From: a bacterium
GTDB taxonomy: Bacteria > Patescibacteriota > Microgenomatia > UBA8517
NCBI GenBank assembly: GCA_030583725.1
Contig: CP129472.1
Span: forward strand, 401,701 to 465,700
Direction of reading: 5' to 3'
DNA: 64,000 nt
Made by a program: the position numbers and the translations under genes. Within the stretch, counting starts at the first letter, position 1; the number at the start of each line of letters is the position of its first letter. The notes beneath the pieces were generated by a model that saw nothing but the letters and a program-made list of their open reading frames with translations, did no database searches and was not told the origin of the DNA. Of this stretch, positions 23,013 to 54,775 are shown piece after piece.

Positions 23013-23144
23013 AAGGCGATAGTGTGTTAAGTGGCCAAGCTTTGCTTACTACTCTCTAGAGCCAGTGATGGTAATGGAGAGGAGCCAAGTTTACTTACTA
23101 CTCTCTAGAGGAGAGGAGCCAAGTTTACTTACTACTCTCTAGGG
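22990..23144. repeat. four partial copies of the rnpB 3' terminus, including a 34-bp tandem duplication
   Basis: CTTACTACTCTCTAGAG recurs at about 22992, 23046, 23093 and 23127. The unit GAGAGGAGCCAAGTTTACTTACTACTCTCTAG(AG/GG) is tandemly duplicated at 23077-23110 and 23111-23144. Confidence 0.6.
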
Positions 23145-29971: not shown

Positions 29972-30084
29972 ATTTATATTATATCTTTGTCGGAGATGAG
30001 TGAGTCGCACACTCGCCAGATGCACCCCATGCACCCATTCTACTCTTAAACTAATCTCCGTCAGAAACATTTTATCAAAAAACA

Positions 30085-46734: not shown

Positions 46735-47019
46735 TTATTTTTTCTTTTCTGTAAATAAATCAATTTTTCCAGATTTTAAAGTAATCAATACCTTCTTCTT
46801 TGCTTGTATCGTTTTAACTATTCCTCTCATTGTTTTCGATTTCATCTTTTTGTAATTTTGAGTTTTGATAGCATTGATTTTAATATCAAATGCTTTTTCT
46901 AAAATTACCTTTATCTGATTTTTAGAAAACTTTGGTAAAAACCAAAAGGAATACAGACCGTTTTTGGCTTGGTTTAGACTTTTTTCTGTATATATTGGTT
47001 TTATATTCATAATGTTCAT
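46735..47019 (-). CDS. rplW: 50S ribosomal protein L23
   Basis: L23 family. The start lies inside a 17-bp tandem repeat. Confidence 0.8.
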   Translation of the reverse strand: MNIMNIKPIYTEKSLNQAKNGLYSFWFLPKFSKNQIKVILEKAFDIKINAIKTQNYKKMKSKTMRGIVKTIQAKKKVLITLKSGKIDLFTEKKK

Positions 47020-47047
47020 ATATTCATAATGTTCATATATTCATAAT
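46999..47047. repeat. 17-bp tandem repeat (about 2.7 copies) at the rplD/rplW junction
   Basis: TATTCATAATGTTCATA occurs at 47004-47020 and 47021-47037, with a partial third copy. On the minus strand it contributes the MNIMNI start of L23. Confidence 0.6.
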
Positions 47048-47671: not shown

Positions 47672-48421
47672 TTAGTTCTTTGCCTCTTCTAAAACTGTTG
47701 CCGCTTCTGGGGCAGTTTCTGTCTTAGATTCTTCACCAGCAGGGCTTTCACCCTCAACAACTGTGGCTACTGCGTGATGTTCAAAATCTAAAGATCCAGA
47801 TTTTATCTTATTAACTGTCAAGAAAATTCCAACTCTTCCAGGAATTGGGCTTGAAAGTAATAGTTGATTGTTTTCTGCATCTATATCAACAACACGAGCA
47901 TTTTTAAATGTAACCTGAACTCCACCCATTCTACCCGCCATTCTCTTGCCTTTATAGACTCTACCTGGAGTTGTGGTCTGTCCTATTGATCCAGGAGCTC
48001 TGTGGCGATCACTTTGTCCGTGAGTCTTTGGCCCACCTCTAAAGTTATATCTTCTAACTCCACCAGCAAAACCTTTTCCTTTATTAACAGCAGTTACTGA
48101 AACAGTATCACCCTTTTTAAAGATATCAGAAACATTAATGATATCACCAACTTTGTAATTTGGTTCTGATGTCATTCTTACTTCTCTTACATATCTTGGA
48201 AAGTTTTTTTCTTTTGATTTGAGGTGGCCTTGAAGTGGTTTAGAAGTGTTTTTTGCTTTTCTGTTTCCGAATCCGAGTTGAATTGCCCAATAGCCATCAT
48301 TCTTTTCATTTTTAATTTGGGTAACTACACATGGGCCAAGTGTTACTTTTGTCACGGGAACTCTAGACCCGTCTATAAAAGTCTGTGTCATCTGTCCTTT
48401 TGTACCAAATAATGTTTTCAT
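47672..48421 (-). CDS. rplC: 50S ribosomal protein L3
   Basis: L3 family. It is not preceded by rpsJ here. Confidence 0.85.
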   Translation of the reverse strand: MKTLFGTKGQMTQTFIDGSRVPVTKVTLGPCVVTQIKNEKNDGYWAIQLGFGNRKAKNTSKPLQGHLKSKEKNFPRYVREVRMTSEPNYKVGDIINVSDIFKKGDTVSVTAVNKGKGFAGGVRRYNFRGGPKTHGQSDRHRAPGSIGQTTTPGRVYKGKRMAGRMGGVQVTFKNARVVDIDAENNQLLLSSPIPGRVGIFLTVNKIKSGSLDFEHHAVATVVEGESPAGEESKTETAPEAATVLEEAKN

Positions 48422-48437
48422 TTGCCGCGTGTCGTGT

Positions 48438-48472
48438 TTTAGAAAAAAATAAAAGCGCCGTAAAAGCGCTTA
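48438..48472 (-). terminator. terminator-like hairpin plus U-run in the rplC leader (candidate attenuator)
   Basis: The minus-strand RNA folds as AAGCGC-uuuuacg-GCGCUU followed by UUAUUUUUUUC. It lies between the promoter at 48539-48567 and the rplC ATG at 48421. Confidence 0.4.
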
Positions 48473-48524
48473 TCCTGCTTTTAGCATTCTTTCTTGAGGC
48501 TATCTTGTTAAATACACCTCCATA

Positions 48525-48569
48525 ATTTCTATTGGTGAATTATATCAAACTATATGACTTGTATCAAGC
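48525..48569 (-). promoter_or_regulatory. 45-bp repeated element copy 1, a near-consensus sigma70 promoter (TTGATA-N17-TATAAT) pointing at rplC
   Basis: Minus-strand reading gives -35 TTGATA (48567-48562), an exact 17-nt spacer and -10 TATAAT (48544-48539). About 110 nt upstream of rplC. Confidence 0.5.
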
Positions 48570-48835
48570 CACGCTTTCATGCTACACTTAGGCTCAAGAC
48601 GGGTATGGAAATTGTAACAAGCGTATTTAATGACGAAATTGTTATTGTCACAGGAAAGCCTGGAGATAAAACTATTCTTAGAACTCCACAACTTGGAGTA
48701 GCCCAAGCATTGGCCACTGCAAGGAACAATTTAGCAAGAACCAATCCTCTTGTTTGTTCAGATAACAATGAGAAAACTAAACCAGTTATGCCAAAAGTAT
48801 CTTTGGTAAGGTCAAATAATTAAATGAAGAGAAAA

Positions 48836-49057
48836 TTAACCTCTTCTCTCAGCACTACTATTTTGACCTTTTTCTTTCCTTTTTTCTAAAACTTCTTCGA
48901 CAGTTTCCTCTAATTGAGATCTTAATAATTCCTCTTTGGCTTCAGCACTTTCTAAAGCCAACCTAACAGTATCTTTTGAATAACCTGTTAAACCAGCCAA
49001 GAGAGAAATCTTAATTTCGTTAGGGATTTTTCTCAATTTATTAAAAACTACCTGCAT
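48836..49057 (-). CDS. small helix-turn-helix-like protein (hypothetical regulator)
   Basis: 73 aa. ISLLAGLTGYSKDTVRLAL resembles an HTH. It has its own TTGAAT-N18-TACTAT promoter. Its C-tail KGQNSSAERRG is paralogous to that of ORF 50477-50743. Confidence 0.35.
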   Translation of the reverse strand: MQVVFNKLRKIPNEIKISLLAGLTGYSKDTVRLALESAEAKEELLRSQLEETVEEVLEKRKEKGQNSSAERRG

Positions 49058-49138
49058 TTTATTATCAACAGATAGTACTCTCTTTTTTTTTTGAAATTCA
49101 AGAATTGTGATTTTTAATATTCCTGAGATAATATAAAT

Positions 49139-49723
49139 ATGTCCAACAAGAAAAATAAGGAAATCGAGATCCAGGTACAGGTTGAGAATATTAAAGGACT
49201 AAATAAGTTTCTTAGAGAAAAAGCAAAATTTATAAACAAAGAACATCAAGTAGATAAATACTTTTCCCCAAAAGATCGTAAGTTTTTAAAAGTCAGACCA
49301 GTAGTTGAGTGGCTTAGGCTACGAGATTCGTCGGATAAACAATCAATTAATTACAAAAATTGGCATCATGATAAAAATGGTAGAAGCCATTATTGTGACG
49401 AATATGAAACTCCTGTTGGAAATATGGAGCAAGTAGAGAAAATATTCAAATCGCTTGAGATAAAACCAATTGTTACTGTAGATAAAACAAGAAAAATATA
49501 TAAATACAAAGATTACGAAATTTCTATTGATTCCATTAAAGATTTAGGTAACTTTGTAGAAATTGAATATAAAGGTAAAAATACAACCAAAAGTCCAGCA
49601 AAAATCACAGAAGAAATGATTAAATTTTTAAAGGACCTAAATTGTGGAAAGATATCAAGAAATTATGTTGGCTACCCTTTTCAAATGTTATTTCCAAAAG
49701 AAGTAAAATACGAAATATTTTAA
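49139..49723 (+). CDS. CYTH-domain protein (triphosphate tunnel metalloenzyme / CyaB-like)
   Basis: N-terminal EIEIQVQV (E-x-E-x-K-like strand with Q at the Lys position), LRLR, DEYETPV and C-terminal FVEIEYKG acidic strands in CYTH order. 194 aa. Confidence 0.5.
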   Translation: MSNKKNKEIEIQVQVENIKGLNKFLREKAKFINKEHQVDKYFSPKDRKFLKVRPVVEWLRLRDSSDKQSINYKNWHHDKNGRSHYCDEYETPVGNMEQVEKIFKSLEIKPIVTVDKTRKIYKYKDYEISIDSIKDLGNFVEIEYKGKNTTKSPAKITEEMIKFLKDLNCGKISRNYVGYPFQMLFPKEVKYEIF

Positions 49724-49730
49724 TCAAAAA

Positions 49731-50372
49731 ATGCCAGATAATAATAACGAGAGGTTAAAATTATTAGAGAGGCAACCCGACTATGGAAAAGTAACAGTTT
49801 TAATTGGTCCAGATGGTGGAGGCAAAACTTACCTTTCAAATAAACTTCATGAAGATAATCCAGAAGCTATTTTAATTGATGGTACTCATCCACAAAACTG
49901 GCCTGTTTCAGATGAAAAGAAAAAGAGTCTTGCAAGATTAAAGGAAATTGGAGGTAATGATCCTAATTTTGATTATTATGGAATTTTAGGTTTAGAACTT
50001 CACAAAGTTATATATAGATTAGCAAAAGAAGGTAAAGATGTAATTGTAGACTCAGAACAAACTTTTAAATGGTTAATGTGGGAAGATATGAAAGGTAACT
50101 TAGACAAATCAATTCAAATACTAACAAGCAAAGAATTCAATGCAATTTTGCCAGATACAGTTAAGTACGTTGTTCCAGAAGCAGAAAGTTTTGATAAACA
50201 AGCAGAATTAATATGGGAACAGCAAAGCAGAAAATTACAATCAGAAGTAAGCCCTATTGACCCTAAAAATTTAGAGGAAGTTAAAACTAGACTTAAAGCT
50301 TCAGAAAATGTAATACTCGCACTTGAAAAGGTTGGAGTAATTGTTGAAGGAAAACCAAATTGGGTAAAATAA
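49731..50372 (+). CDS. P-loop NTPase, nucleoside/nucleotide-kinase-like
   Basis: Walker A VLIGPDGGGKTYL and a DVIVDSEQ Walker-B-like segment. 213 aa. The start lies 8 nt after the CYTH stop, indicating an operon pair. Confidence 0.45.
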   Translation: MPDNNNERLKLLERQPDYGKVTVLIGPDGGGKTYLSNKLHEDNPEAILIDGTHPQNWPVSDEKKKSLARLKEIGGNDPNFDYYGILGLELHKVIYRLAKEGKDVIVDSEQTFKWLMWEDMKGNLDKSIQILTSKEFNAILPDTVKYVVPEAESFDKQAELIWEQQSRKLQSEVSPIDPKNLEEVKTRLKASENVILALEKVGVIVEGKPNWVK

Positions 50373-50414
50373 ATTAATAACTAATTGGAATTTTAATAAT
50401 TACTCAATATAATC

Positions 50415-50459
50415 ATTTCTGATGGTGAATCAGATCAAACTATATGACTTGTATCAAGC
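50415..50459 (-). repeat. 45-bp repeated element copy 2 (degenerate promoter copy)
   Basis: 41 of 45 positions match copy 1. The -35 TTGATA and the 17-nt spacer are conserved, while the -10 is degraded to TCTGAT. Confidence 0.5.
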
Positions 50460-50476
50460 AATGGTTTTATAAAGTT

Positions 50477-50743
50477 TTAACTTCTTGCTTCAGTCCTACC
50501 ACCTTTTTGTTCAGCCTCAAGTTCTGCTTTGTATTTATTCATTTTGTCAATTAATGTTGGAGGTGGTTGTTCTCCACGACTTAACATACCTTCTACTAGT
50601 AATATAAAGGGTTTTCTAGAACGATCTTGTCTTTCTTTATATGTAGATAGACTGTCCCGTACACCTTTTGCAACATGTGCTATTATTCCAGAGCTCATTC
50701 CACCACCGCCTTGCCAAAAATAACGTTTACCCGACATTGCCAA
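50477..50743 (-). CDS. small hypothetical protein, paralogous to the HTH-like ORF
   Basis: 88 aa, possibly starting at the internal Met at 50698. TTGAAT-N17-TAATAT promoter upstream. C-tail QKGGRTEARS and the 3' nucleotides are homologous to ORF 48836-49057. Confidence 0.3.
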   Translation of the reverse strand: MAMSGKRYFWQGGGGMSSGIIAHVAKGVRDSLSTYKERQDRSRKPFILLVEGMLSRGEQPPPTLIDKMNKYKAELEAEQKGGRTEARS

Positions 50744-50815
50744 ATATTACTCTCTCTTTTTTTGAAATTCAACACACATATTAAAATCTTTGATTAAAGA
50801 TATTGTATAATCCAA

Positions 50816-51210
50816 ATGTATGAATCCGTAGGTATATTTAGCAGGACCAGGAAATCAATATGATCCAAGGAGGTCGATAGTTAAAAAAATAAAAGGTTTT
50901 AAATTTTATGATCCTGATACAGATTCTGATCAATCTTCATCAGAAACATTTTTCCCTCAAGATTTAACTGCAATCAAAAACTCAGAAATTTTAATTGCAA
51001 ACCCAGGCACTGCACCTGCAGAAGGAACATGGATTGAAATTGGATATTTTTACGCACTAAACACTAAAAAAGCTGGGGACTTTTGTAACAACTTGATAAT
51101 TATTTGGAACAAAGACAGAGTATCTTGGTCTATAGAATTTGTTAAAAAAACTGGCCATGTAGTTGGAACAGTTAAAGAAGCAATATCCAAACTCAGAGCG
51201 CTACACAATT
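50816..51210 (+). pseudogene. nucleoside 2-deoxyribosyltransferase-like gene with N-terminal +1 frameshift
   Basis: The frame from 50832 encodes VYLAGPGNQYD...PAEGTWIEIGYFYALNTKKAG (NDT-family YLAGP and E.G.A.A motifs) but has no start codon. An ATG at 50816 in the adjacent frame gives MYESV then stops. Deleting one nt near 50831 restores MYESVVYLAGPG. Confidence 0.5.
50984..51066. repeat. 83-bp perfect direct repeat, copy A (inside the NDT-like gene)
   Basis: Identical to 52258-52340 by eye over all 83 nt. Confidence 0.7.
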
Positions 51211-51285
51211 AGTCGTTAATCTAAATAGATCCAGTAAAGATATATCTATTGTGAATCGGTACAAGGATGTTGTGTTTAGTGACTT

Positions 51286-51942
51286 TTGATCCTGTGTTAT
51301 AATTCTTTTGTGCTTAAAAACAAAATTCTTGGCATATTAAATATACTTCTGAGTTTATGTTTTGCTTATTTTATATTCTCTGGAATTAAAAATGATGGTT
51401 TCCCGGAAATTTTTTCTTCTGAGATTTTTATATTTATTCTTTTTGTATTTTCACTGAGTATAAATATATTTGTAGTTTATAAAATGTTATTCAAAAATAA
51501 CGACAAGTTATCTTTTCCTTTGTATCTAGTATTAACCCTCTCAACTATATTTTGGTTTATATTATTGTTTGTTACTTATTTTTTTGCATCTAATTTCTTA
51601 TTTCATTTAATTATCTTGACTGCAATTTCTATTTTTTCTTACTTCCTTTATAAATTGTCAAAAAAGATAGCTTTAATGTTTTTAACTACGACTGTCTTTA
51701 TTTTGTTTATCTCAACTATAATTGGATTTAATAACGACTACTGTTGGAGAAAAGGAAGACAAGCTGATAAGACTGGAGATAAAATGATGGTTGCTACAAA
51801 AGAAGATGCTGAGTTACTTAAAAACTTTGGTGTTGTGAAAGAGGGAAATAAAATTGGAGTTAGTTTTAGAACTGAGATGTTATGCTATCAAACTTTCAAT
51901 TTCAAGGATGCTATTAGTGATCTTTTTCCAATCTTAAAGTAA
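51286..51942 (+). CDS. membrane protein with C-terminal soluble domain (hypothetical)
   Basis: About 5 TM helices followed by a 70-aa polar domain. Confidence 0.35.
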   Translation: MILCYNSFVLKNKILGILNILLSLCFAYFIFSGIKNDGFPEIFSSEIFIFILFVFSLSINIFVVYKMLFKNNDKLSFPLYLVLTLSTIFWFILLFVTYFFASNFLFHLIILTAISIFSYFLYKLSKKIALMFLTTTVFILFISTIIGFNNDYCWRKGRQADKTGDKMMVATKEDAELLKNFGVVKEGNKIGVSFRTEMLCYQTFNFKDAISDLFPILK

Positions 51943-52038
51943 CTTTTTACTTTATTACCTATTAACCCTTCGACTACTGCCAAAGTATAACTACAGGCGA
52001 TAACATTACAGAAAAAATTGTAATTAAATTTCTTATAT

Positions 52039-52257
52039 TTAAATAAGACTAAAGTGTTTAAATACATCAATTATTCCATTTTCATCCACACTTGGAGCTA
52101 TATATGAATTATTACTTCCTTTAGACAAGACAAGTTTTTTTAACTCTTCTTGTGAATTTCCCATAGCTGAAACAAACTTACAAAGCTCAATAAATTTCCA
52201 ATCTCTTGTACTATCACCGACCCCAAGCATGTTTTCAAAAGATATATTTGTTTCTTT
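52039..52257 (-). pseudogene. C-terminal fragment of a Cof-type HAD phosphatase
   Basis: VGDSTRDWKFIE...AMGNSQEELKKLVLSKGSNNSY...ENGIIDVFKHFSLI aligns to the last 70 aa of Cof-like hydrolases (GDxxND motif III, AMGNA). The first 200 aa are missing. The 5' end abuts copy B of the 83-bp repeat. Confidence 0.55.
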
Positions 52258-52340
52258 AGAAATTTTAATTGCAAACCCAGGCACTGCACCTGCAGAAGGA
52301 ACATGGATTGAAATTGGATATTTTTACGCACTAAACACTA
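52258..52340. repeat. 83-bp perfect direct repeat, copy B (rearrangement junction)
   Basis: Identical to 50984-51066. It supplies the spurious first 9 codons of ORF 52039-52284. Confidence 0.7.
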
Positions 52341-53102
52341 GATCAGTCGTTGCAATTGCATTTCTCCCTTTTGTCTTCCAAAGTGATTACCACCATATAA
52401 TATAACCCCATATTTTTCAAAAAGTTTGTATGGTGGGTCGCTTGTACGTTTCTTTGATTCAATAATTTTTCTAAGTTCATCAGAGGGCGACTTTAATGCT
52501 TCGATTGTCGTTCTTGATGCAACCATTAAACCTAATTGTGACTGAGTAATAAGACCCGATGTTGTAAGTCCTTGATGGCCTAAAGCTGCGCTAATTAAAA
52601 GACTTTGGAAATCTCCTAAAGTCCAAGTAACAGGAACGCCGTTAACTTTTGGAATCGTTTTCGAAAAATAACTTAGAAGATGATTTACTACATCATCTAA
52701 CGGATGTGAATGTATATGTGCAAATGTCCTCCAACCCGCTGGAAAAGGAATTGACTTCAATGTATTAACATGTTGATGCATCTCCTTCTGAGTTTTATCA
52801 GTCAAGCTTTCGTATTCACTACCTTCAAAAACCTTATTACTAATCATTAACTCTCCTGCGTCGTTTGTACCAATAACAGCATCGCGTTCAATCAAAATAC
52901 CAGAATCTGCTGATGTTGTATTTTTGCCACAATAAACACGGTGATAGATAGATTGAAAAAAGTTTCCATCAAGTGGAACTACAACTTTGTATGGAAACAC
53001 TTCTGGCTCTAAATCTGCCGAAACTTTAATAACTTGGCCAAAGTTTTCAAATGAATATGTTATAAAATCAGGTCTACTTGGAAACCCTACTGTTTTTTCC
53101 AT
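52338..53102 (-). CDS. hypothetical protein (H-x-H-S-H-P metal-site-like motif)
   Basis: 254 aa. The FAHIHSHP segment is loosely reminiscent of a JAMM/MPN H-S-H-P site, but the downstream S-x2-D is not evident. Confidence 0.3.
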   Translation of the reverse strand: MEKTVGFPSRPDFITYSFENFGQVIKVSADLEPEVFPYKVVVPLDGNFFQSIYHRVYCGKNTTSADSGILIERDAVIGTNDAGELMISNKVFEGSEYESLTDKTQKEMHQHVNTLKSIPFPAGWRTFAHIHSHPLDDVVNHLLSYFSKTIPKVNGVPVTWTLGDFQSLLISAALGHQGLTTSGLITQSQLGLMVASRTTIEALKSPSDELRKIIESKKRTSDPPYKLFEKYGVILYGGNHFGRQKGEMQLQRLI

Positions 53103-53133
53103 AAATTGTATTATATCAAAGATAAGAAGTTAA

Positions 53134-53784
53134 CTAATTCTGTTTTCTACTTTCAACAAACTTTTTTCCATGACCAATTTGTAAATTAATTGGTATATTT
53201 TGTTCACATAAAGGGCAATCTTTTTCATGATATGACTCGGCTTTTAAATTGGAAAGCGAAGAAAATGGAACACCCAACGTCTCAGAGTTAACTCCGTCAG
53301 GATTTCTATTAACCATAGTGCTAACCGCTGTAATCCTTCCACCAGCTTTAACAACACTTTCAACAACTTTCAATACAGAACCACCCGTTGTTGTTATGTC
53401 TTCAACTATTAAAACATCTTTGCCTTTTACCATTTCACCATATCCTCGTCTAAAAACTTGATCATTAAGTTCATCCTTTTCCGTATAAACCCCACTTATC
53501 TCTTTGCTTTTAAGCTGAGTTAAATGATATGCAGTCCATTGAGATAAAATTATTCCACCAACTGCTGGACCAACTACAACATCTATATCCAGATACTGAT
53601 GTCTTTCGGCAAACATTCTACAAACCATAGTTGTTTCCATGGGGTGCAAGTACATTGCATCTTTATTTACATATACTGATCCATGAAGTCCTGAAGTGTA
53701 GACAAAATGACCATTGGTATAGACTGCTCCGACTCTTTTAAAAAGATCAAGAAGTGGATCAACCCCTTCAAATTCTATAGTCAT
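53134..53784 (-). CDS. type I phosphoribosyltransferase, PyrE-like, with C-terminal Cys pair
   Basis: GHFVYTSGLHGSVYVN (compare PyrE GEFTLKSG..SPYFFN), PRPP-binding VLIVEDITTTGGS, and a C-terminal CPLCEQ. Confidence 0.6.
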   Translation of the reverse strand: MTIEFEGVDPLLDLFKRVGAVYTNGHFVYTSGLHGSVYVNKDAMYLHPMETTMVCRMFAERHQYLDIDVVVGPAVGGIILSQWTAYHLTQLKSKEISGVYTEKDELNDQVFRRGYGEMVKGKDVLIVEDITTTGGSVLKVVESVVKAGGRITAVSTMVNRNPDGVNSETLGVPFSSLSNLKAESYHEKDCPLCEQNIPINLQIGHGKKFVESRKQN

Positions 53785-53842
53785 TTTGAAATGATAACAT
53801 AGAATTAATATAAAGTTGTTTTTTTGGTTATTGTTGTAAAGA

Positions 53843-54106
53843 TTGTTGAGTGGTATTTTATTACTAATGGCACCTGAAGCTTTAGTTATAGTGAATAGTG
53901 GGCAATCTAGTGATGAAATGACTGAAAGATTACGGCTAGCTGGGATTAAATTTCGAGAAATGAAAGTGGAAGGTGAAACAGTCCAAGACGAGACAGGGGT
54001 TCGCCAAGTTCCAGTTATAATTACAAGAGAAGGCGACTTTACTTCAGATGGGTTAGAGAATTATTTAGAAATAAAGGCAGAACAGACAAGATTAAAAATA
54101 CGATAA
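53843..54106 (+). CDS. Cys-less NrdH/glutaredoxin-like small protein
   Basis: Fold-level resemblance to NrdH (beta-alpha-beta with VPVIIT..GDF), but SGQS replaces the CxxC. Noticeably GC-richer than its surroundings. The true start may be an internal Met. Confidence 0.3.
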   Translation: MLSGILLLMAPEALVIVNSGQSSDEMTERLRLAGIKFREMKVEGETVQDETGVRQVPVIITREGDFTSDGLENYLEIKAEQTRLKIR

Positions 54107-54116
54107 TATTTTAAAA

Positions 54117-54446
54117 ATGCCAGCAGAACGAATACACGTAACTAAAGAGAATGCTGGGATAGCAGTGGCCTCAGGAATACTACTTGGAGCTGGAGTTATC
54201 TTTCCACCGGCGGTAGGATTAGGAATTGCTGTTGGCGCCGTGGGGGTTGTAAGAGAAGAGCGACATCAACGAGATGTTCAAATGGAAAATCTTAAAAACT
54301 ATATCGAATCTAGTCTCAGGGGTAAAGCTCCGGATGAAATTAGACCAACTATTGAGGAGTTAACAAAACGAATCACAGAAGGTCGTGATCTTCAAGATAG
54401 ATTTGACGCTGTCGAAGAACTTGCTCGTAGAATTGAAGATTCATAA
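54117..54446 (+). CDS. membrane-anchored hypothetical protein
   Basis: 109 aa with a Gly/Ala-rich TM hairpin and a charged C-terminal helix. GC-richer. Confidence 0.3.
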   Translation: MPAERIHVTKENAGIAVASGILLGAGVIFPPAVGLGIAVGAVGVVREERHQRDVQMENLKNYIESSLRGKAPDEIRPTIEELTKRITEGRDLQDRFDAVEELARRIEDS

Positions 54447-54472
54447 AATTATACCTAGTTTCCACACCACTC

Positions 54473-54775
54473 TTACATCTTAATTTCTATGGAGACACCT
54501 GCTGGAAGATCCATATTGCCTAATGAATCTACTGTTCTTGGGGTTGGGTCAATTATATCAATTAGTCTTTTATGAATTAAAACTTCATAATGTTCTTGAG
54601 CATCTTTATCTGTAAATGGAGATTCTTTAACGGACATCAAGGTCCTATCAGTTGGGAGTGGGGTTGGTCCAGAAATTTTAGCACCTGAAGCTAGGGCGAC
54701 ATCTATAATCTTTGATGCTGCCTCATCTATTACTCTATGATCGTAAGCTTTTAGCTTAACTCTAAGTCTTTGCAT
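54473..54775 (-). CDS. rpsJ: 30S ribosomal protein S10
   Basis: RLRVKLKAYDHRVID...HKRLIDIIDPTP is the canonical S10 sequence. It directly follows tuf, but about 6 kb separate it from rplC. Confidence 0.9.
   Translation of the reverse strand: MQRLRVKLKAYDHRVIDEAASKIIDVALASGAKISGPTPLPTDRTLMSVKESPFTDKDAQEHYEVLIHKRLIDIIDPTPRTVDSLGNMDLPAGVSIEIKM

Follow-up and report, generated by a model that had tools for sequence, protein, structure and literature searches.

A recent 83-bp direct repeat at a truncated Cof-type HAD phosphatase gene in a Patescibacteria-like genome is probably a scar of microhomology-mediated illegitimate recombination

The window analysed here, a 64-kb stretch of DNA, carries a str/S10/spc ribosomal gene cluster on its minus strand. 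An island of ~6 kb lies between the genes for ribosomal proteins S10 and L3, and no L30 gene was found between the S5 gene and the gene preceding SecY; absence of L30 is a CPR-like trait. Annotation of the island with Pfam and NCBIfam identified CYTH, P-loop, NDT-like and orotate-PRTase-like genes and a HAD fragment, together with several ORFs that belong to no family. Matches to integrase or recombinase families were found in none of the ten island ORFs with Pfam, nor in the NCBIfam scan. The features discussed below are collected in Table 1.

Table 1. Features of the S10-L3 island and its borders (window coordinates)
Feature	Position	Strand	Remarks
L3 gene (rplC)	47672-48421	-	border of the island
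Island	48422-54472		~6 kb
NDT-like gene (nucleoside 2-deoxyribosyltransferase superfamily)	50820-51212	+	in-frame TAG at 50829-50831; MNP*VYLAGP...
Copy A of the repeat	50984-51066	+	in frame within the NDT-like gene, codons ~55-83, SEILIANPGTAPAEGTWIEIGYFYALNT; the family's most conserved motif
Membrane-protein gene	51310-51942	+	210 aa from GTG 51310, or 218 aa from TTG 51286
Cof-type HAD-IIB phosphatase remnant	52039-52272	-	last ~74 codons; GDSTRD and AMGN motifs
Annotated 81-aa ORF	52039-52284	-	GTG start inside copy B; first nine residues antisense to NDT
Putative microhomology at the left junction	52258-52272	-	antisense of the first 15 nt of copy B: GCA ATT AAA ATT TCT (AIKIS)
Copy B of the repeat (ectopic)	52258-52340	+	bordered by the HAD remnant and by the stop of the 254-aa gene, with no NDT-like sequence on either flank
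254-aa gene, conserved, function unassigned	52338-53102	-	TAG stop at 52338-52340, the last 3 nt of copy B
S10 gene (rpsJ)	54473-54775	-	border of the island

The island contains an 83-nt sequence that occurs twice in direct orientation with full identity, the starts of the two copies being 1274 nt apart. When up to three mismatches were allowed, these were the only two matches in the 64-kb window, and 100 dinucleotide-preserving shuffles gave none. The bases immediately flanking the two copies differ, and the flanks have no residual similarity. Apart from these two copies, exact direct repeats of 24 nt or more occur in the 64 kb only as a pair of 59-nt promoter sequences and as two short tandem repeats. 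The 59-nt pair is older and brackets another segment of the same island, of 1.9 kb.

The first-pass annotation of this DNA had reported the exact repeat and had also raised the possibility of a collapsed or misjoined assembly. That the source is a metagenome-assembled genome (locus tags QY322_*) speaks for an artefact of assembly or amplification, be it a collapsed repeat, a misjoin or a chimera. We checked the assembly independently against Logan contigs (k=31) from two runs, DRR859381 and SRR24881069; in both, the contigs are free of mismatches to the window. The contigs on the left, or P, side (L009 and L010) stop at position 51013, the middle contig (L003; 1251 nt, 51037-52287, present in two samples) covers the interval between the copies, and the contigs on the right, or R, side (L001 and L002) begin at 52311. 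Each contig break is located exactly 30 nt (k-1) inside a repeat copy. This is the de Bruijn behaviour of an 83-bp repeat with four distinct flanks, which shows that the four junctions are present in both read sets, and P-A-Q-A-R is the sole linear path that uses every unique segment once. Contig L003 crosses the membrane gene and the HAD remnant without a break, which indicates that these samples contain no identical second copy of the segment with other flanks. With three classes of junction-bearing contigs of exact sequence, the predicted breaks, two independent runs from different archives and a source contig of 841,695 bp, the misassembly alternative is refuted and an artefact of any of these kinds has a negligible probability. 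The repeat is genuine, as the mismatch search, the shuffles and the two read sets all confirm.

Copy A had been described as internal to the NDT-like gene, and this was borne out by the reading frame and by two relatives, in which NDT homology runs on both sides of copy A (84.6% nucleotide identity in L013 and 78.8% in L004). Since NDT similarity flanks copy A in these relatives and does not continue past the borders of copy B, the alignments identify copy A as the native and copy B as the ectopic sequence. In L013, L014 and L004 the sequence of A is internal to an uninterrupted NDT gene, and the point at which the window and L013 diverge is located downstream of the NDT stop, not at A.

The family assignment of the NDT-like protein is borderline, with a score of 28.7 bits for Pfam PF05014 at a cut-off of 28.8, and the NDT homologs of L004 and L014 have only 'weak' precomputed family matches. 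Profile alignment placed its residues 46-83 on CMP N-glycosidase (4jen, E = 0.0047) and on blasticidin M (5vto), and the protein contains the active-site segment PG...GT.IEIG, the Glu of which we take to be catalytic. The frame of the gene is not intact: codon 4 is TAG in the window and in both Logan runs, where the relatives have Gln (MKPQVYLAGP in L004, MQSQVYLAGP in L013), and no alternative ATG, GTG or TTG start is found in this frame before codon ~92. Apart from the nonsense codon, dN/dS against L013 is 0.08, which suggests that the nonsense mutation is recent too. The NDT-like gene is probably a recent pseudogene as well as the donor of the patch.

Both junctions of copy B are present in the Logan contigs L001, L002 and L003 from the two runs. 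To its right, the 254-aa gene has kept its native C-terminus, GRQKGEMQLQRLI; the homologs of 255-257 aa all finish with ...GRQKGE[MT]QLQRL[IF], and since the match extends to the last residue in all of them, the gene is complete. The final three bases of copy B, taken as their reverse complement, form its TAG stop, and the stop is TAA in three relatives. The overlap at the right joint would be at most 2-3 nt ('TA' or 'CTA'), as judged from the relatives. The start of copy B (AGAAATTTTAATTGCAA) has some resemblance to the reverse complement of the sequence coding for the C-terminus of the 254-aa protein (AGAAATGCAATTGCAA). RNA through copy B folds no better than shuffled sequences (z = 0.6), and a role of copy B as a structured RNA or terminator was dropped on this ground. 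An Rfam scan of the window gave no match.

To the left of copy B lies the remainder of a Cof-type HAD-IIB phosphatase gene. It is matched by Pfam PF08282 (Hydrolase_3) over profile positions 194-254 of 255, with 29.3 bits against a cut-off of 20.9, and by the NCBIfam Cof-subfamily model TIGR00099 over positions 196-254 of 256, with 25.2 bits, which is below that model's cut-off of 137. Compared with complete members of the family, it retains the last ~60 profile positions and the C-terminal core, in which GDSTRD represents GDxxxD (motif III/IV region, characterised by this motif and a conserved Lys) and AMGN is present. It lacks ~205 N-terminal residues, and with them the C2 cap domain, motif II and motif I, which provides the DxD nucleophile. 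By its motif content the remnant cannot be an active family member, since motifs I and II and the cap are absent. The annotated 81-aa ORF is a 100% match to an 81-aa 'HAD hydrolase family protein' at NCBI.

A profile search for this HAD subfamily returned 17 proteins, mostly fragments. The full-length form is represented by L012, where a protein of ~283 aa is split by a frameshift into 158 and 129 aa, and the remnant aligns to it only from residue ~207 onward. In tblastn, the C-terminal half of the L012 protein matched 52272-52051 with 55% identity, reaching 15 nt into copy B, and nothing in the 64 kb matched the N-terminal half (DVDGV motif, TIGR00099 positions 2-134; best E = 0.076). These results support the earlier description of a truncated Cof-type HAD gene with the repeat at its junction, of which ~74 C-terminal residues remain while ~205 are gone from the 64 kb. 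What remains has decayed little: all 14 residues that are invariant across the other 12 family members are kept, as are 26 of the 33 residues conserved at 80% or more. In L011, another HAD gene of this subfamily has been 5'-truncated independently.

The position at which the HAD frame enters copy B suggests how the left junction was formed. Read on the minus strand, the first 15 nt of copy B encode AIKIS, the antisense of AGAAATTTTAATTGC, and at this position members of the HAD family follow the pattern A-[ILM]-x-[IV]-[SA], with AIEIS as the commonest form. Random in-frame 15-mers of the window fit the family pattern with p = 2.8e-4 and the exact A-I-x-I-S with p = 5.5e-5. With a chance of about 3e-4 for a match of AIKIS to a family that prefers AIEIS, the left junction was probably formed at a microhomology of ~15 nt; the ancestral HAD nucleotides at this place are deduced from protein conservation. 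The copied patch may measure 68-83 nt, since up to 15 nt of copy B probably matched the native HAD sequence already.

Between the copies lies a membrane-protein gene, as had been noted before, and its end and its two candidate starts (Table 1) were borne out. Exact look-ups found the 210-aa product from the GTG start on record, not the 218-aa membrane ORF and not the 81-aa HAD ORF, and gene calling on Logan contig L003 gives the identical 210-aa product. The membrane protein matches no family in Pfam or NCBIfam and has a homolog with 37% identity in L005. The GC content of the membrane-gene segment is 0.25-0.30, against 0.33-0.37 for its neighbours.

The two copies differ at 0 of 83 nt, which sets a 95% upper bound of 3.6% on their divergence. 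This identity, together with the full set of 14 invariant residues in the HAD remnant, supports the earlier view of a very recent event, and by both measures the event is recent when set against the 15-25% divergence of orthologous genes in the closest relative. Since two samples carry it in identical form, it must also have a certain age, unless the strain is highly clonal.

Relatives were recovered from groundwater fractions of 0.1-0.2 um and from a single-cell genome of Patescibacteria, and the gene order of the island differs in every relative found. In L004, the genes for S10, YunG, a 73-aa family member and the 254-aa homolog come in this order, followed by NDT on the same strand. In L005, a stretch of ~2.2 kb contains S10, the 254-aa homolog, an 88-aa family member, the membrane gene, a 73-aa family member and the L3 promoter, in this order. 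The closest relatives, L013 and L014, share ~83% of nucleotides with the window in tuf, fusA and rpsJ, and orthologous genes in the closest relative diverge by 15-25%; here an intact NDT gene and the 254-aa homolog are direct convergent neighbours, neither a membrane gene nor a HAD gene intervening. The order membrane gene, intact HAD gene, 254-aa gene was not found among these relatives. Three contexts were inspected for an intact HAD ortholog in synteny (L007, L011 and L012), and all are unrelated to the island. A scan of genome representatives with the 254-aa protein alone gave no match and no long syntenic relative, and the same scan with a 254-aa profile found only a homolog of 43% identity, on a 2-kb contig of a Patescibacteria single-cell genome.

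We argue that the locus is the recent scar of a microhomology-mediated illegitimate recombination, probably functionless, in a Patescibacteria-like genome, and give this reading a probability of roughly three in four. The ancestral order on the plus strand would have been the NDT-like gene (forward), the membrane gene (forward), a full-length HAD gene of ~283 aa (reverse) and the 254-aa gene (reverse), an intact HAD gene thus having once stood at this exact position. Its sequence at the future junction would have been close to GCA ATT GAA ATT TCT, so that ~15 nt of the plus strand would have been nearly identical, in direct orientation, to AGAAATTTTAATTGC of the NDT-like gene 1274 nt upstream. 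Synthesis or annealing would have switched at this microhomology, the next 68 nt of the NDT-like gene would have been copied, and the strand would have been rejoined at the stop of the 254-aa gene, with loss of the 5' ~620 nt of the HAD gene and of the spacer. The 254-aa gene would thereby have exchanged its TAA stop for TAG, the chimeric 81-aa ORF would have arisen, and the remaining 83-bp repeat could later delete the 1274 bp between the copies. Several observations stand against this best explanation. The proposed ancestral order is seen in no relative found; in the closest relative L013, confirmed by L014, the NDT-like gene abuts the 254-aa gene with nothing between. The lost stretch of at least ~620 nt exceeds the SPDIR microindels described so far, and the putative microhomology at the right joint is no longer than 2-3 nt. 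A simple inversion relative to L004 was considered and rejected: it would put the N-terminal part of the HAD gene beside the start of the NDT-like gene, where there is only a promoter of 76 nt. A copy brought in from another locus is disfavoured, as L003 is unbroken, the window contains no paralogs and the protein collection includes only one HAD-subfamily protein from the source contig.

Any scenario needs two new joints, one between the HAD gene and the start of A and one between the end of A and the stop of the 254-aa gene. We tentatively favour, at a little under even odds, a single complex event that would have made both, either a double template switch or an SPDIR-like ectopic annealing of a single strand at two microhomologies. 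Possible, with rather less conviction, is a two-step route, in which a 1274-bp tandem duplication at the microhomology would have been followed by a deletion of ~1.9 kb that removed most of the second copy. Duplication remodelling, in which a tandem duplication forms at a microhomology and is later deleted in part, is a known bacterial route. The joint between the HAD gene and copy B is of the kind expected if 50984-52257 had been duplicated head to tail at a direct microhomology of 15 nt and a deletion had then left a stub of the second copy. Unlike a simple tandem duplication, only 83 nt of the putative second copy are left, two events are required and the intermediate is normally unstable. 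Rearrangements by replicative template switching (FoSTeS/MMBIR type), known chiefly from eukaryotes and from amplification systems of E. coli, resemble the locus in that a deletion junction carries a short insert, templated in direct orientation by DNA close by, and in that there is microhomology where the template is switched.

The likeness to SPDIR is closer in some respects than in others. SPDIR, defined by experiments in Acinetobacter baylyi, gives rise to patches of ectopic DNA, 3 to ~100 bp long, where there are (extended) microhomologies (bioRxiv 10.1101/2023.11.22.568220). The present patch, of 68-83 nt, is likewise intragenomic, with copy A as its putative donor at a distance of 1274 nt, and one of its joints would be at an extended microhomology of ~15 nt. 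In contrast to SPDIR, the DNA that was replaced, at least ~620 nt, would be far longer than the patch, homology at the second joint would not exceed 2-3 nt, and the event is deduced from a natural genome.

The order found in L013 suggests another history, in which the HAD gene was never intact here. An ancestor of the L013 type, with the NDT gene convergent on the 254-aa gene, would have taken up, by illegitimate recombination, the membrane gene and an already truncated piece of the HAD gene of another strain or haplotype, one of the joints falling at the NDT/HAD microhomology, and a deletion of ~160 nt would then have removed the second NDT 3' end. The adjacency of NDT and the 254-aa gene in L013 and L014, in the orientation that copy B has, speaks for this history, as do the variable gene order of the island and the lower GC content of the membrane-gene segment; low GC is also expected for a membrane protein rich in Phe, Ile and Leu. 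The illegitimate joint would, however, be located inside the homologous anchor; its resolution on a single duplex would require an extra duplication, and another deletion, a precise one, would have to follow. No donor haplotype is known, and the 100% identity of the copies fits an intragenomic source better. We consider such an import improbable. The same neighbourhood of NDT-like sequence and the 254-aa gene, seen in L013, L014 and L004, would also suit an old relic, copy B being the rest of an ancient NDT copy that gene conversion has kept identical to copy A, in which case the event would not be recent. This is very improbable in our judgement, as no degenerate NDT similarity continues past the sharp borders of the 83 bp, a tract this short is ill suited to sustained conversion, the HAD remnant has not decayed, and a relic does not predict a left border at an HAD-like microhomology.

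Direct repeats that bracket a 1.2-kb segment might also be read as the attL and attR sites of a site-specific cassette, and the older 59-nt pair around its own 1.9-kb segment could be seen in the same light. The absence of integrase and recombinase families from the island ORFs argues against a cassette, and the repeat is ordinary conserved NDT coding sequence. Moreover, an empty att-type site with a single copy at the insertion point was not found in L013, L014 or L004. Alternatively, copy B could have a function, for instance as an 83-nt antisense to the NDT mRNA, for it is antisense to NDT on the strand of the 254-aa gene and would be part of a minus-strand transcript. The fold of RNA through copy B is nevertheless unexceptional, and the NDT target already carries a nonsense codon. 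Taken as one alternative, a cassette or a functional copy B is scarcely credible.

We regard the scar of illegitimate recombination as an ordinary mutational scar: it reveals no new system, will not surprise a specialist, bears on no question of long standing, and offers no evidence of function. It is a clean natural case in which a deletion junction carries a templated patch at a microhomology and donor and recipient can both be seen. A stronger proposal, which we put forward as speculative and rather unlikely, is that an SPDIR-like event or a double template switch, its donor and recipient lying in cis at a distance of 1.3 kb, became fixed here in nature, and that it is part of a wider reshuffling of the rpsJ-rplC island by illegitimate recombination at microhomologies or short repeats. 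If this were true, a mutation class known so far chiefly from laboratory work would be evidenced in a natural population, and in one other than Acinetobacter; the older 59-nt promoter duplication flanking a 1.9-kb gene set would fit the pattern of reshuffling, and the reduced DNA-repair repertoire of these organisms might favour such events.

The public 81-aa 'HAD hydrolase family protein' is the remnant of a chimeric pseudogene, and the NDT-like gene appears to be inactivated as well. Metabolic reconstructions of this reduced genome should count neither the HAD enzyme nor the NDT-like enzyme. In this lineage, the spacer between S10 and L3 is a rearrangement hotspot with small genes of nucleotide metabolism.

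The spacer between rpsJ (S10) and rplC (L3) is occupied by an island of ∼6 kb made up of small genes, several of them from families of unknown function. Subsets, orders and orientations of the island genes differ among three contigs of relatives (L004, L005 and L013), and the island of L005 is only ∼2.2 kb long.

Features of the island and of other parts of the window
Feature	Position (nt)	Strand	Details
rpsJ-rplC island, gene content	48422-54472	both	CYTH, P-loop protein, NDT-like gene, membrane protein, PRTase
rpsJ-rplC island, families of unknown function	48422-54472	both	254-aa, 88-aa, 73-aa
L3 start codon	48421	-	
Terminator-like hairpin and U-run	48453-48471	-	
59-nt direct repeat	48522-48580, 50412-50470		85% identical
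In-frame TAG	50829-50831	+	codon 4 of NDT-like gene
58-aa chimeric ORF	52229-52405	+	
254-aa gene	52338-53102	-	
Perfect tandem duplication	23076-23142		34 nt x 2
Perfect tandem duplication	47002-47047		17 nt x 2.7; spans L4 end and L23 start
tRNA-Pro(GGG)	29989-30060		ARAGORN call

The NDT-like gene, a member of the nucleoside 2-deoxyribosyltransferase superfamily, is interrupted at a position where relatives have a Gln codon. The stop codon was seen in both of two independent read sets, and the gene apart from codon 4 has a dN/dS of 0.08. It looks like a recent nonsense mutation. In L013, the closest relative, the sequence that encodes the C-terminus of the 254-aa gene product (...QLQRLF*) recurs in inverted form at the 3' end of the NDT gene (...LKLQRLIY*; 470-520 of that contig). 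The result is a 9-bp hairpin (GTTACAAAG/CTTTGTAAC) that lies between these convergent genes and may serve as a bidirectional terminator.

The family of the 254-aa protein has no sequence match in Pfam, NCBIfam or PDB. Alignment of seven members showed 25 invariant positions, including H131, S132, H133, P134 and D137; in the 254-aa protein the stretch H131-D137 reads HSHPLDD, and after it come PKVN and a conserved Trp. A 58-aa chimeric ORF (MFSKDIFVSLEILIANPGTAPAEGTWIEIGYFYALNTRSVVAIAF...) overlaps the end of this gene in antisense orientation and crosses the ectopic copy (copy B) of the perfect 83-bp repeat in the frame used by the NDT-like gene; most likely it has no meaning.

The subfamily of Cof-type HAD-IIB phosphatases of which the window carries a C-terminal remnant is independently damaged in two metagenomic relatives too. 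In L012 (1872-2722), a frameshift splits the HAD gene into 158 and 129 aa at the 'KIMPIA' point, which is also where several database proteins start. The HAD gene of L011 (629-1126) is 5'-truncated to 137 aa, with an upstream remnant of only ∼32 residues.

Elsewhere in the window there are two perfect tandem duplications, the one at the L4-L23 junction reiterating an ATG-containing motif. A gathering-threshold scan of the whole window against Rfam gave zero matches, tRNA model included, despite the ARAGORN call.

The 59-nt repeat is a minus-strand sigma-70-type promoter preceding L3, with TTGATA and a TG-extended TATAAT separated by 17 nt (11 of 12 matches). Its second copy, located directly past the 88-aa gene, has a degenerate -10 hexamer, and the 1.9 kb between the two copies carries the 73-aa, CYTH and P-loop genes. 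This pair looks like an older counterpart of the 83-bp pair. Downstream of the L3 promoter and ahead of the L3 start codon lies a terminator-like hairpin with a U-run. Now that the island separates the L3-L4 operon from S10, this hairpin could serve the operon as a leader attenuator.
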